10,220 nucleotides of DNA, taken from IMG/VR virus record IMGVR_UViG_2706794662_000011; one strand, 5' to 3'. Under the pieces are notes generated by a model that was not told the origin of the DNA, made no database searches, and was given only the letters and a program-made list of their open reading frames with translations. The stretch comes from a virus. Taxonomy: Duplodnaviria; Heunggongvirae; Uroviricota; Caudoviricetes. The translations under genes and the position numbers were made by a program. Below are positions 3,124 to 7,219 of this stretch, piece by piece (the stretch's first letter is position 1; each line of letters starts with the position of its first letter).

Positions 3124-3504
3124 ATGACCGAGCGCATAGAATTTGTTTTACCTTACCCGCCGACGGTGAACACTTACTGGCGTCGTCGTGGCAGCACATA
3201 TTTTGTATCAAAAGCCGGGGAGCGTTATCGCCGGGCAGTGGCGCTTATTGTTCGCCAGCAGCGGCTGAAATTAAGCCTGTCCGGAAGGTTGGCAATAAAA
3301 ATTATTGCAGAACCACCGGATAAGCGCCGCCGTGACCTGGACAATATTCTGAAAGCGCCGCTGGATGCGCTGACGCATGCGGGGTTGCTAATGGACGATG
3401 AGCAGTTTGATGAAATCAATATCGTTCGTGCTCAGCCAGTATCTGGTGGACGTCTGGGGGTGAAGATTTATCCCATAATGCTTGAAGGGCAGGTCAAAAA
3501 ATGA
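3124..3504 (+). CDS. rusA: RusA-family Holliday junction resolvase, 126 aa
   Basis: Motifs LPYPPTVNTYWRRRG and DKRRRDLDNILKAPLDALTHAGLLMDDEQ match the RusA family (catalytic acidic cluster). The ATG abuts the ydfU stop, and the position just before Q is canonical. Confidence 0.85.
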   Translation: MTERIEFVLPYPPTVNTYWRRRGSTYFVSKAGERYRRAVALIVRQQRLKLSLSGRLAIKIIAEPPDKRRRDLDNILKAPLDALTHAGLLMDDEQFDEINIVRAQPVSGGRLGVKIYPIMLEGQVKK

Positions 3505-4322
3505 AACTGGAAGATTTACCGAAATACTACTCCCCAAAATCCCCCGGCCTGACTGATGCATCGGCCTCAACGTCGAAAGATGCGCTGAGTATCACTGATG
3601 TGATGGCCGCGCAGGGCATGACACAGAATCGGGCTGAGATGGGGGTTTCTGCGTTCCTTGGGAAAATGGGCATTAGTATGAATGACAGAGAGCGGGCAAC
3701 AGAATTGCTGACAGAATATGCACTCAGTCGGTGTGATCGCGTGGCGGCGTTAAGAAAACTCCCGGCAGAAATAAAACCGGCAGTGATGCGTATTATGGCT
3801 TCGTATGCGTTTGAAGATTATGCCCGTAGCGCGGCGAGCAAAAAACAGTGCCCCTGCTGTCACGGAAAAAAATTTATTGAAAGCGAGGTTTTTACAAACA
3901 AGATCCAGTATCCGGATGGTAAGCCGCCGGTATGGGCAAAGTGTACGAAAGGTGTGTATCCGTCTTACTGGGAAGAATGGAAAAAAGTCAGGGAGGTGGT
4001 AAAAGTTGCCTGTCCGGAGTGTGGCGGAAAGGGTGAGGTTTCCACCGCCTGTAAGGATTGCCGTGGGCGTGGTGTCGCCATTCATCGTGAAGAGTCGGTA
4101 AAACGTGGTATGCCTGTTATCAGAGACTGCCAGCGTTGTGGTGGTCGTGGCTATGAAAGACTACCATCAACGGAGGCATTTAATGCTATATGCGAGGTGA
4201 CAAACCAGATAACACGCGCGTCATGGGAAAAAACAGTTAAGAAATTTTATGATGCGCTGGTGACCCGGTTTGATATTGAAGAAGCATGGGCTGAGCGGCA
4301 GTTAAAAAAGGTAACTAGGTAA
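3501..4322 (+). CDS. Late-gene antiterminator Q-like protein (phage 82/QuuQ type), 273 aa, with four CxxCxGxG zinc-finger repeats
   Basis: ATGA overlap with rusA. Lies directly upstream of a candidate promoter plus terminator. Repeats are CPCCHG, CPECGGKG, CKDCRGRG and CQRCGGRG. Confidence 0.6.
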   Translation: MKLEDLPKYYSPKSPGLTDASASTSKDALSITDVMAAQGMTQNRAEMGVSAFLGKMGISMNDRERATELLTEYALSRCDRVAALRKLPAEIKPAVMRIMASYAFEDYARSAASKKQCPCCHGKKFIESEVFTNKIQYPDGKPPVWAKCTKGVYPSYWEEWKKVREVVKVACPECGGKGEVSTACKDCRGRGVAIHREESVKRGMPVIRDCQRCGGRGYERLPSTEAFNAICEVTNQITRASWEKTVKKFYDALVTRFDIEEAWAERQLKKVTR

Positions 4323-4327
4323 CAAGG

Positions 4328-4355
4328 TTGATTTTTCCGGAATCTGTGGTAAATT
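4328..4355 (+). promoter_or_regulatory. Candidate late promoter (pR'-like), where a Q-utilisation site would be expected
   Basis: -35 TTGATT at 4328..4333, a 16-bp spacer ending in TGG (extended -10 TGn), and -10 TAAATT at 4350..4355. It lies between Q and the first downstream terminator. Confidence 0.4.
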
Positions 4356-4402
4356 CGTCATAACGATGGGCGTTTTATGCCTGACGTTAGAAGAGTTTCT
4401 AC

Positions 4403-4428
4403 AACCCGCCGCCGAGCGGGTTTTTTAT
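4403..4428 (+). terminator. Intrinsic terminator (tR'-like) about 50 nt downstream of the candidate late promoter
   Basis: Stem aacccgc, loop cgccga, stem gcgggtt, followed by ttttttat. Confidence 0.55.
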
Positions 4429-4546: not shown

Positions 4547-4744
4547 ATGCTAAAACAGCAGGATATGACAGAAACCGCCAGAGTGGTGTTTAATGAATTA
4601 AGCGTTACCGAACCGGCGACAGTCGGGGAGATAGCGCAGAATACTTACCTTTCACGCGAACGCTGCCAGTTAATACTGACCCAGCTGGTTATGGCGGGTC
4701 TGGCAGACTATCAGTTCGGTTGTTACAGACGCCTTCCGCAGTGA
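4547..4744 (+). CDS. Small putative winged-helix/HTH DNA-binding protein, 65 aa
   Basis: RBS aaggaaaag upstream of the ATG. The segment ATVGEIAQNTYLSRERCQLILTQLVMAGL looks like an HTH recognition region. It is the first ORF after the tR'-like terminator. Confidence 0.45.
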   Translation: MLKQQDMTETARVVFNELSVTEPATVGEIAQNTYLSRERCQLILTQLVMAGLADYQFGCYRRLPQ

Positions 4745-4771
4745 AGGCTTTTTTATTTGTGGTAAATGGGC

Positions 4772-4802
4772 GGCTGGTGGGTGTTAGGGGCACCCACCAG
4801 CC
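4772..4802. promoter_or_regulatory. Perfect 12-bp inverted repeat with a 7-nt spacer (GGCTGGTGGGTG ttagggg CACCCACCAGCC); candidate operator or RNA stem-loop
   Basis: Read directly. No T-tract follows on either strand. It sits between the HTH ORF and the methyltransferase. Confidence 0.5.
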
Positions 4803-4876
4803 ATCTGCTCATGCGTTGGGTTCACAAGCAAACCTCAGGCCCACTGCTTTGCGCAAAAGCAGAATGAGCCTATCAG

Positions 4877-5136
4877 NNNNNNNNNNNNNNNNNNNNNNNN
4901 NNNNNNNNNNNNNNNNNNNNNNNNNNNNNNNNNNNNNNNNNNNNNNNNNNNNNNNNNNNNNNNNNNNNNNNNNNNNNNNNNNNNNNNNNNNNNNNNNNNN
5001 NNNNNNNNNNNNNNNNNNNNNNNNNNNNNNNNNNNNNNNNNNNNNNNNNNNNNNNNNNNNNNNNNNNNNNNNNNNNNNNNNNNNNNNNNNNNNNNNNNNN
5101 NNNNNNNNNNNNNNNNNNNNNNNNNNNNNNNNNNNN
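4877..5136. other. N-masked gap (260 N); hides the 5' part of the methyltransferase gene
   Basis: Run of n characters. Confidence 1.
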
Positions 5137-5921
5137 TGATGCGTGAACGCTTCAGTGTGCTGAACCATATTATCTGGGCGAAGCCGTCCGGACGCTGGAA
5201 CGGATGCAACAAGGAAAGCCTGCGGGCGTATTTCCCCGCCACAGAGCGCATTCTGTTCGCGGAACATTATCAGGGGCCGTATCGTCCGAAAGATGCCGGG
5301 TATGCGGCGAAGGGCAGTGCACTGAAACAGCATGTGATGGCCCCGCTGATTTCTTACTTTCGTGATGCGCGAGCTGCCCTGGGGATAACGGCAAAACAGA
5401 TTGCAGATGCCACAGGAAAGAAAAACATGGTGTCGCACTGGTTCAGTGCCGGTCAGTGGCAGTTGCCGAATGAAAGCGATTATCTGAAATTACAGGCGCT
5501 GTTTGCCCGGGTGGCAGAAGAGAAGCATCGGCGTGGTGAACTGGAAAAGCTCCACCACCAGCTGGTGGATACGTATACCTCACTGAACCGGCAGTATGCG
5601 GAGCTGCTGAGTGAATATAAACATCTGCGGCGGTATTTTGGCGTGACGGTGCAGGTGCCGTATACCGATGTGTGGACGCATAAACCGGTGCAGTTCTATC
5701 CCGGGAAACATCCGTGCGAAAAACCGGCAGAAATGCTGCAGCAGATAATCAGCGCTAGCAGTCGTCCGGGTGACCTGATTGCAGATTTTTTCATGGGGTT
5801 GGGTTCGACAGTGAAAGCGGCACTGGCGCTCGGGCGTCGTGCAATTGGCGTTGAGCTGGAGACTGAACGTTTTGAGCAGACGGTTCGGGAAGTACAGGAT
5901 TTAGTCAGCCAGAACGGATGA
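5137..5921 (+). CDS. DNA methyltransferase, N6-adenine/N4-cytosine type (beta-class order), C-terminal 261 codons; 5' end is inside the N-gap
   Basis: Motif I-like FFMGLGST near the C-terminus, and HPCEKP. In the beta class the DPPY motif is N-terminal and would fall in the masked region. The frame is open right up to the gap edge. Confidence 0.7.
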
Positions 5922-5961
5922 TATTGAAGAATTAATTACGCGTCGTTATTATGCGGCTCCC

Positions 5962-6037
5962 GGCCCTTTAGCTCAGTGGTGAGAGCGAGCGACTCATAAT
6001 CGCCAGGTCGCTGGTTCAAATCCAGCAAGGGCCACCA
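5962..6037 (+). tRNA. tRNA with anticodon CAU, 76 nt, with encoded CCA; likely a prophage Ile2 (lysidine) tRNA, Met not excluded
   Basis: Acceptor stem ggccctt pairs with aagggcc. D-arm gctcagtggtgagagc. Anticodon loop ctcataa. T-arm gctgg-ttcaaat-ccagc. Discriminator A, then CCA. One A-C mismatch at the top of the anticodon stem. Confidence 0.85.
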
Positions 6038-6044
6038 TCACATA

Positions 6045-6078
6045 CCGCCATTAGCTCATCAGGAAAGAGCGCCAGCCT
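6045..6078 (+). tRNA. Possible 5' portion of a second tRNA, cut off by the N-gap
   Basis: D-arm-like tagctcatcaggaaagagc begins 8 nt after the first tRNA. The rest is masked, so neither fold nor anticodon can be checked. Confidence 0.25.
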
Positions 6079-6356
6079 NNNNNNNNNNNNNNNNNNNNNN
6101 NNNNNNNNNNNNNNNNNNNNNNNNNNNNNNNNNNNNNNNNNNNNNNNNNNNNNNNNNNNNNNNNNNNNNNNNNNNNNNNNNNNNNNNNNNNNNNNNNNNN
6201 NNNNNNNNNNNNNNNNNNNNNNNNNNNNNNNNNNNNNNNNNNNNNNNNNNNNNNNNNNNNNNNNNNNNNNNNNNNNNNNNNNNNNNNNNNNNNNNNNNNN
6301 NNNNNNNNNNNNNNNNNNNNNNNNNNNNNNNNNNNNNNNNNNNNNNNNNNNNNNNN
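6079..6356. other. N-masked gap (278 N)
   Basis: Run of n characters. Confidence 1.
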
Positions 6357-6504
6357 GAATCCCCCTGTGCGGAGGGGCAATCAGCGAGTAGGTATATGGG
6401 ATAATCGCGGATTCAGGTGCTGGTACTGAATTCACCGGGAGGCACCCGGCATCATGCAATGGCACATAGCGCCACTCTCCAGCCCTCTCCGGAGGGGCTT
6501 TTCT
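6357..6504 (+). ncRNA. Copy A of a structured ~150-nt repeat element ending in an intrinsic terminator; candidate small RNA
   Basis: Begins gaatccccctgtgcggaggggc at the gap edge. Middle hairpin ccggg-aggca-cccgg at 6435..6449. Terminator ccctc-tccg-gaggg plus ttttc at 6483..6504. No ORF of 60 aa or more. Confidence 0.35.
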
Positions 6505-6693
6505 GTGCCGGATACATCACAGTTTCTGGAACCTTAGGTACTACAGTATCAGTCAGGGTGCTATATTTTCAGATGTGATGAAAGCCTGTCAGCAGGCAGG
6601 GCGTATCGGAAATGACCCAGTAGAGAAAACGTTGACTCAGATACCGGTGCTGAGTTACCGGGAAACCGGCATCACATGACCGCTATCCTTCCA

Positions 6694-6721
6694 GGCCCAT
6701 CCGCTCCGGTGGGCCTTTTTA
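6694..6721 (+). terminator. Intrinsic terminator between the two repeat copies
   Basis: Stem ggcccatccg, loop ctc, stem cggtgggcc, followed by ttttta. Confidence 0.55.
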
Positions 6722-6823
6722 CTGCAGAAAACAGGTTCCCCGTTAAATGCTATGTTGCTCACAATTCAGTAAGTTGACAGTTGCCTGTCAGACTGGGCAT
6801 TTGTTAAAAAAATTTCGCATGGT

Positions 6824-6990
6824 GAATCCCCCTGAGCGGAGGGGCGACTGGTGACGGTATAATCTCTGATTATCAAAACGAGAATGACGCGGGTTTAGTG
6901 GCACCGGGCTGAACTCACCGGGAGGCACCCGGCACCATGTGCATGATGATACAGATACGCGGCTTTAGCCCCTCTCCGGAGGGGTTTTCT
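6824..6990 (+). ncRNA. Copy B of the structured repeat element; candidate small RNA
   Basis: Begins gaatccccctgagcggaggggc. Perfect TATAAT at 6858..6863. Shares with copy A the block tcaccgggaggcacccggca-catg and a terminator (cccctc-tccg-gagggg plus tttt at 6969..6988). Confidence 0.35.
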
Positions 6991-6997
6991 TGTGGGC

Positions 6998-7026
6998 AAA
7001 AAAAGCCCGCGCTGGGAGACGCGGGC
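6998..7026 (-). terminator. Minus-strand intrinsic terminator, back to back with the copy B terminator
   Basis: Stem gcccgcg (7005..7011) pairs with cgcgggc (7020..7026). The A7 run at 6998..7004 is a T-tract on the minus strand. Confidence 0.45.
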
Positions 7027-7094
7027 GGCAAGGAATAAACAATAAAACGTGAAGTAATATTTCAGCTGGCGAATAATACCCCATAGTAATCACT

Positions 7095-7117
7095 CTGCGC
7101 AACTGCGCGGTCTTTTT
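7095..7117 (+). terminator. Intrinsic terminator upstream of the esterase gene
   Basis: Stem ctgcgc, loop aact, stem gcgcgg (one G-U pair), followed by tcttttt. Confidence 0.5.
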
Positions 7118-7219
7118 CGAATTGCGGGCTGTCGTCTCTCTTCTGCCATTGTCCTGTAACTTCCGGACTTCAGCCCGCTCCTTATTTTACTCACAATATT
7201 ATCCCGGCCGGGAGGATTC

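Follow-up and report, generated by a model that had tools for sequence, protein, structure and literature searches.

What is encoded in the roughly 860 bp that separate the tRNA genes from the esterase gene in the late region of a lambdoid prophage? We analyzed this question for the IMG/VR virus record IMGVR_UViG_2706794662_000011, a stretch of 10,220 nucleotides (nt) that is called the window below. A first-pass annotation, made from the letters alone, had described two divergent copies of a structured element in this region. It had suggested a family of Hfq-dependent small RNAs (sRNAs) with a conserved scaffold and variable seeds at a late-region position, and this proposal is borne out by a match to the Rfam family RF02076, by covariation, and by variable 3′ modules. 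The region is very probably a cluster of four independent sRNA genes at the moron site of the late operon, which act in trans via Hfq. Three of the genes (A, C, and B, in this order on the plus strand) belong to the STnc100/PasD superfamily, and the fourth lies on the minus strand and converges on B. The family, its structure, and the architecture of the locus are already published; the region is an ordinary case of a known family in a known layout. The additions made here are minor, namely an unnamed subfamily represented by C and evidence of module shuffling.

A covariance scan with all Rfam families, which the annotation had proposed as a check, detected STnc100 (RF02076), a prophage sRNA family with a gathering score of 47 bits. 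Copy A scored 69.8 bits with its 5′ part masked, and copy B scored 161 bits in a full-length match to the model (6788-6997). Both are above the curated threshold. The start of A, GCATGGT (its first 7 nt), and the promoter of A are masked by N, and their sequence was taken from Escherichia coli UTI89. The unmasked homologue of copy A in prophage Sp4 of strain Sakai, which stands directly after tRNA genes, scored 138 bits with RF02076. As a positive control, the same search was performed on Sakai prophage Sp5. An STnc100 match of 207.7 bits, corresponding to EcOnc27, was detected 75 nt past stx2B, and the published EcOnc27 probe falls inside this match.

Copy A was 98.6% identical to the stretch of Sakai Sp4 (L005 2282-2427) that holds the Hfq peak EcOnc05 of cross-linking and analysis of cDNA (CRAC), and copy B shared 84% identity with the EcOnc27 locus of Sp5 across 180 nt. 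EcOnc05, 08, 13, 21, and 27 have been analyzed by Hfq CRAC and Northern blots (PMC4104026 Table S2). By analogy with the homologues EcOnc05 and EcOnc27, A and B are expected to be discrete Hfq-associated transcripts of about 150-250 nt. The interpretation as prophage Hfq-binding sRNAs is supported by published loci that are near-identical or homologous, EcOnc05, EcOnc27/sRNA103, and PasD1/2 (PMC4104026; PMC8550237; bioRxiv 10.64898/2026.05.13.724894). The 'STnc_100' primers for quantitative PCR of PMC12370729 match copy A; the forward primer overlaps the masked 5′ end by 6 nt, and in this part it fits the UTI89 sequence. STnc100 loci, such as EcOnc27/sRNA103 of Stx2 phages and EcOnc05 of Sakai Sp4, resemble A and B in scaffold, promoter layout, and terminator type, and are likewise positioned between tRNA or stx genes and an esterase gene. 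The late lambdoid-prophage location of the family was also found here, with Q (PF03589), tRNAs, a SASA esterase, and a holin as flanks. However, the 3′ linker module of EcOnc27 differs from that of B, and these STnc100 loci possess one unit, whereas three units stand in tandem in the window.

A and B could be aligned over their whole length. Their direct repeats are GAATCCCCCTG(T/A)GCGGAGGGGC at 6357 and 6824, CTGAAyTCACCGGGAGGCACCCGGCAyCATG at 6426 and 6909, and CCCTCTCCGGAGGGG with a T-tract at 6483 and 6970. The two- and three-copy direct repeats were confirmed at these places and are far above chance. The hairpin ccggg-aggca-cccgg, which the annotation had called conserved, is contained in the repeat at 6426 and 6909. 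The repeats that it had placed at 6357..6504 and 6824..6990 do exist, but its count of two was too low, since unit C is a third one. Similarly, the motif that it took as the element start is present at 6357 and 6824, but the units begin 7 nt upstream of GAATCC, at GCATGGT.

Unit C folded de novo to the architecture of A (z -2.61). In its closing stem, double compensatory changes relative to A and B were seen at two pairs in both variants of C and at a third pair in variant 1 only. Hairpins 1, 3, and 4 were retained with different sequences. A BLAST search with C gave matches, in two variants, for 673 of the 5426 E. coli genomes and retrieved neither A-type nor B-type units; the share of complete E. 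coli genomes with C is about 12%, and among phage records only 5 contain it. In the variant of about 91% identity (L247), the linker ACCGCUAUCCUUCC was identical, whereas hairpin 1 and the terminator were altered yet still pair. In the arrays seen, C stood between two canonical units, and a few of the sampled loci showed a single flanking unit. In E. coli 51008369SK1 (L247 1263-1920), a three-unit array was composed of a different STnc100 variant, this C variant, and an A-type unit, and was followed on the opposite strand by the anti-adapter gene iraM.

Covariation was tested with 15 diverse scaffolds, for which the consensus comprises four helices and 25 pairs. The consensus pairs were 98.1% paired. 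Changes on both sides were seen in nine pairs; column shuffles gave 3.1 +/- 1.2 (0/500), and slid-partner controls gave 0-3. MAFFT misplaces the 3′ closing strand of PasD, and the PasD rows count as gaps in helix 1; C was also misaligned in an earlier, larger alignment. The consensus structure of STnc100, a closing stem around hairpins followed by a terminator, was observed, and almost all of 41 distinct scaffolds from IMG/VR loci folded alone to this architecture. In the fold predictions, which the annotation had also suggested, the full-length UTI89 copy of A gave the four-way junction and the terminator (z -2.36), and the scaffold of B alone gave the family architecture.

The upstream regions were also compared. 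Fifty distinct upstream sequences of family members share TAAAT..CTCACAATTCAG...GTTGAC..TTGyCT, 18 nt, TAAAAr (with TG two bases upstream), about 6 nt, and GCATGGTG. The promoter predicted for B from these motifs agrees in spacing with the PasD2 promoter. The 5′ end of the PasD2 RNA was determined by RNA-seq (NC_011601 741157) as the G of GCAUGG (PMC8550237 Table S6). From this end and the shared upstream layout, starts at about 6350, 6572, and 6817 are predicted for A, C, and B. The annotation had described the perfect TATAAT of copy B (6859-6864) as a -10-like hexamer. This hexamer is located inside the transcript, in a variable module that is missing from most relatives, and is accompanied neither by a -35 element nor by TGn; it was therefore rejected as a promoter. 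As a separate observation, CTCACAAT occurs at 6758-6765, upstream of B (and of A in UTI89), and again at 7190-7197, 22 nt ahead of the start codon of the esterase gene; the complement of this motif includes the PasD seed UGUGAG. This repeat is not significant, with at least two matches in 11 of 200 shuffles.

The terminator scan of 5900-7300 yielded 10 terminator-like sites compared with 1.1 +/- 1.2 in shuffles, which is about 9-fold. They reduce to five, at 6481-6499, 6693-6716, 6967-6986, and 7095-7110 on the plus strand and at 7026-7005 on the minus strand. These are the same four plus-strand sites and one minus-strand site that the annotation had listed. The two that it regarded as further plus-strand terminators are present, but the one at 6693-6721 ends unit C, and the one at 7095-7117 is inside the minus-strand sRNA gene.

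The 3′ segment of the units varies as interchangeable modules. Among 132 units from 120 viral contigs and fetched genomes, a sample biased by the search pattern, 9 internal and 11 linker-terminator modules were distinguished, and their combinations violate the four-gamete test. This pattern in the sequences indicates recombination across the invariant junction of hairpin 4 and the closing stem. If such shuffling occurs, tandem arrays such as A-C-B would be both its product and its substrate. The family members were retrieved with a longer gapped pattern on viral contigs; a contig scan with the 15-base pattern GCATGGTGAATCCNCC gave only chance matches in unrelated phyla.

The fourth gene is identified by near-identity with published loci. 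The 233 nt from 6998 to 7230 were 95.3% identical to Sakai Sp4 (L005 2437-2669), where the EcOnc08/21 Hfq peaks are located. [quoted passage not shown] This minus-strand sRNA of EPEC PP6 has cfa, dppA, and tir among its RIL-seq partners, and its target motif GGCAAGG is complementary to CCUUGCC (PMC8550237). The identity of the minus-strand gene to EcOnc08/21/42 includes the terminator and the seed CCUUGCC. EcOnc08, EcOnc21, and EcOnc42 of enterohaemorrhagic E. coli, which equal E2348C_1409.E2348C_1408.IGR, share this terminator, seed, and position antisense to the esterase leader, and no difference of note from the gene in the window was seen. The candidate promoter would start the RNA near 7191, which fits the EPEC estimate mapping to 7179. 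The hairpin at 7095-7117 is conserved in Sp4, Sp5, and EPEC PP6. The coordinates of all features are given in Table 1.

Table 1. Features of the sRNA cluster and its neighbouring genes in the window.
Feature	Position	Strand	Remarks
sRNA gene A, STnc100 family, counterpart of Sakai Sp4 EcOnc05	6350..6504	+	scaffold 6350-6457; linker/putative seed 6458-6480; terminator 6481-6504
Extended -10 element of C, TGcTATATT	6559..6567	+	read from the sequence; kept in both C variants
sRNA gene C, diverged unit of the STnc100/PasD superfamily	6572..6720	+	scaffold 6572-6678; single-stranded linker ACCGCUAUCCUUCC 6679-6692; terminator 6693-6720
Predicted promoter region of B	6758..6810	+	motif CTCACAATTCAG 6758-6769; GTTGACA 6773-6779; -35 TTGCCT 6781-6786; extended -10 TGtTAAAAA 6802-6810
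sRNA gene B, STnc100 family	6817..6991	+	scaffold 6817-6940; variable linker/putative seed 6941-6966; terminator 6967-6991
Convergent sRNA gene, EcOnc08/21/42 family (EPEC E2348C_1409.E2348C_1408.IGR)	6998..7179	-	terminator 7026-6998; seed CCUUGCC 7033-7027; 5′ stem 7178-7124
Terminator-like hairpin CTGCGCAACTGCGCGG + TCTTTTT	7095..7117	+	within the gene of the minus-strand sRNA; precedes the esterase gene
Candidate sigma-70 promoter of the minus-strand sRNA	7198..7226	-	ATGCCA, 17 nt, GATAAT; 9 of 12 in the consensus scan; overlaps the esterase start codon
Q antiterminator gene	3501-4322		PF03589 match
Esterase gene, SASA/DUF1737/DUF6645, nanS-p-type	7220-9073		downstream of the sRNA cluster

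We propose that the cluster works as follows. A, C, and B would each be transcribed from a separate sigma-70 promoter that carries an extended -10 element. The plus-strand RNAs would be about 150-175 nt each, with an 8-bp closing stem around a multi-branch scaffold in which hairpin 1, a variable insert, hairpin 3, and hairpin 4 follow one another. On the 3′ side of the scaffold, a single-stranded linker of variable sequence would precede the intrinsic terminator. The minus-strand gene converges on B, and the two end back to back. In the lysogen, the four RNAs would be made without need for the phage Q protein. As with the published homologues, from which the Hfq binding, transcript sizes, and target sets are taken, they would bind Hfq and base-pair in trans, through the linker immediately 5′ of the terminator. 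The linkers of A and C are C/U-rich and appear similar to anti-Shine-Dalgarno seeds, and CCUUGCC would be the seed of the minus-strand RNA. Expression in this host, the seed nucleotides of A, B, and C, and their targets are inferred. Once the prophage is induced, RNA polymerase that starts at pR′ (about 4328) and is modified by Q would pass all the terminators, leading to expression of the esterase and lysis genes. In the pairing analysis of the linkers with the translation-initiation regions of the genes in the window, nothing stood out. The conserved 5′ segment UGAAUCCCCC of the STnc100 units (6823-6839) is complementary to the esterase ribosome-binding site GGGAGGAUUCA (7204-7220). Since its duplex energy ranks only 56 of 1912 windows, this pairing was rejected.

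A 2026 preprint relates STnc100 to the EPEC sRNAs PasD1 and PasD2 (bioRxiv 10.64898/2026.05.13.724894). PasD1/2 and the homologue of the minus-strand RNA have published RIL-seq and Northern blot data, and their RNA ends (5′ and 3′) and seeds have been described (PMC8550237). PasD1 and PasD2 of EPEC E2348/69, which are equivalent to EcOnc13, resemble the units of the window in the common 5′ end GCAUGGUGAAUCC, the closing stem, the hairpin layout, the location of the seed in the linker immediately 5′ of the terminator, and a site that directly precedes the esterase gene. As is true of unit C, they remain under the STnc100 gathering threshold, with 41.4 bits for PasD2 and 37.7 bits for PasD1. A, B, and C gave no BLAST match to the loci L002, L003, and L006 of the PasD comparison (word size 7, E 1e-3), and the PasD seed UGUGAG is missing from the linkers of A, B, and C.

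The annotation had also named AgvB and AsxR as possible relatives, with the identity flagged as unconfirmed. The type of locus was rightly recognized, but the names do not apply. AgvB, AsxR, and EcOnc03 are anti-sRNAs of the same locus type, encoded on the minus strand and converging on an STnc100-type gene at the moron site. They are 51-60 nt long and possess a conserved 3′ region, GUAUCUCAUGC..UUGCCCGAACCCAYUCGGGC, which is missing here. No match to RF02702 or RF02703 was detected in the window at E <= 1, and the core was not found with up to three mismatches, whereas the positive control gave AsxR with 88 bits in Sakai Sp5, converging on the STnc100 there. The convergent RNA of the window belongs to a different family, and its EPEC homologue is estimated at 182 nt. 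In the IMG/VR contigs L127-L246, many STnc100-type units were followed by AgvB-like, AsxR-like, or EcOnc08-like sequence on the opposite strand. Other downstream contexts also occur, and the plus- and minus-strand partners reassort. In the published layout, Hfq-binding sRNAs form dyads that lie between the late promoter and the lysis genes (PMC4104026; PMC7873438). The window shows this convergent-dyad layout with a different partner and two extra plus-strand units.

The array might instead act mainly in cis. Immediately upstream of the esterase and holin genes, a stretch of 760 nt contains four successive plus-strand terminators, which in the lysogen could insulate the esterase and lysis genes from read-through of tRNA and moron promoters, the RNAs being by-products. 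Q-modified polymerase would ignore these terminators, and both the late promoter and the Q gene are located upstream. Moreover, a review calls the reason for the sRNA arrangement at this site unclear (PMC7873438), and insulators that Q can bypass would answer this published question of why sRNA dyads sit here. Nevertheless, one terminator would suffice for insulation, and the conserved promoter and covarying scaffold that precede every terminator would be left unexplained. The linker of C is invariant while the flanking stems change, and the homologues bind Hfq and form chimeras with many mRNAs. We regard a mainly insulating role as unlikely, though not implausible; it could coexist with activity in trans. 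A joint reading, in which C is a third unnamed subfamily beside STnc100 and PasD with its own invariant seed ACCGCUAUCCUUCC, cassettes are shuffled, and the arrays serve as insulators bypassed by Q, is offered tentatively, with somewhat less than an even chance of holding as a whole.

Some of the units could be sponges for core-genome sRNAs, as AgvB and AsxR are, instead of regulators of mRNAs. The type of locus is the same, and elsewhere AgvB-like and AsxR-like sequences directly follow STnc100-type units. This is improbable because the units have no homology to AgvB or AsxR and give RNAs three times longer with another architecture, and because the listed RIL-seq partners of PasD and of the minus-strand homologue are mostly mRNAs. 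Short late-region transcripts with a promoter and a terminator are also known from the leader modules of late promoters (pR′, qut, and tR′), such as lambda 6S RNA and StxS, and StxS, which also binds Hfq, is a precedent for a pR′-tR′ RNA that functions as an sRNA. However, lambda 6S RNA and StxS start at pR′ next to Q. In the window, a lambda-like pR′ (TTGATT...TAAATT), a pause-like AACGAT about 6 nt past the -10 element, and a tR′-like hairpin aacccgccgccgagcgggtttttt are present separately, directly after Q at about 4328-4428; the units are more than 2 kb downstream of this pR′, behind the methylase gene and the tRNAs. The PasD and Sp5 units are also separated from Q by other genes, and we consider a leader origin hardly credible. 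An equally remote chance is given to the view, raised by the annotation itself, that the repeats are what remains of tRNA genes or of a decayed coding sequence. The repeats follow a tRNA cluster, GGTGAATCC is faintly T-arm-like, and RefSeq places a partial 'hypothetical protein' pseudogene over copy A. However, neither ARAGORN nor the Rfam tRNA model detected anything in 6357-7220. As the annotation had reported, no open reading frame (ORF) of at least 60 amino acids (aa) lies entirely in real sequence between the mask and 7220; two longer minus-strand ORFs cross the mask, and a 53-aa ORF gave no Pfam match. The substitutions are compensatory in stems and are not codon-patterned. Thus, no tRNA remnants and no sign of degraded coding were found, and both origins are contradicted.

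Several points weigh against the cluster of trans-acting sRNA genes that we propose. To our knowledge, no target of an STnc100-type RNA has been shown to be direct, and the effects of sRNA103 on fimZ and espA reportedly come from overexpression. Unit C scored 30.1 bits with RF02076 (E 0.0017), below the gathering score, and is without a published transcript; by this score, it is filed only as a relative within the superfamily. Full-length B has its minimum free energy in an alternative fold, whose z-score of -1.26 is weak. This fold disrupts both hairpin 1 (6824-6845) and the terminator (6968-6989), because these two are mutually complementary (73% over 22 nt). The Northern sizes are about 222 nt for EcOnc05 and about 235/247 nt for EcOnc27 (PMC4104026 Table S2), and exceed by 60-75 nt the prediction of 155-175 nt for an RNA that begins at GCAUGG and stops at the terminator of its own unit. 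The 5′ ends given here for STnc100-type units are therefore tentative, and read-through forms may occur. For expression at this exact locus and in this host, the proposal draws on the data of homologues; coordinates of the locus were sought in an Hfq co-immunoprecipitation study of UTI89 (PMC4546395), and none were found.

Prophage sRNAs at this site, such as AgvB, AsxR, StxS, and PasD, rewire host regulation in pathogenic E. coli, and EcOnc27 variants are said to be linked statistically to the outcome of haemolytic uraemic syndrome. Four such genes in a prophage of the type found in extraintestinal pathogenic E. coli would explain the 'empty' 860 bp to annotators. They yield candidates for Hfq-dependent regulation in extraintestinal strains. 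Infernal with Rfam would annotate the two main copies, A and B, automatically.

The stretch 6357-7220 (864 nt) was 99.8% identical to the chromosomes of E. coli UTI89, ATCC 11775, S88, and others. It was matched at least in part by 2717 of the 5426 complete genomes, and at least 80% of the stretch was found in 353 genomes. According to UTI89, the N mask at 6080-6356 covers most of two tRNA-Arg genes and a terminator in addition to the promoter and first 7 nt of copy A; the first tRNA-Arg gene begins at about 6045, ahead of the mask. The window as a whole is the late region of a lambdoid prophage, in which a hok/sok module is followed by DUF968 and RusA genes, Q, a DNA methylase, tRNAs, the esterase gene, and a P21-type holin gene.

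Two overlapping ORFs are read in the methylase region (4720-5921), one at 4720-5139 and the other at 5139-5921. In the latter, the Pfam N6_N4_Mtase match begins only at profile position 71, and the UTI89 counterpart is one gene of 349 aa. The split may reflect a frameshift or a different allele. At 1246-1327, a weak match of 25.7 bits, compared with a gathering score of 50, was obtained for isrK, an Hfq-binding RNA of Salmonella prophages. This is probably a chance match or a distant relative. The antitoxin RNA sok was detected at 912-1087 (RF01794, 112 bits), adjoined by a hok-type ORF at 1025-1237, and the UTI89 annotation at the position equivalent to this ORF is hokD.

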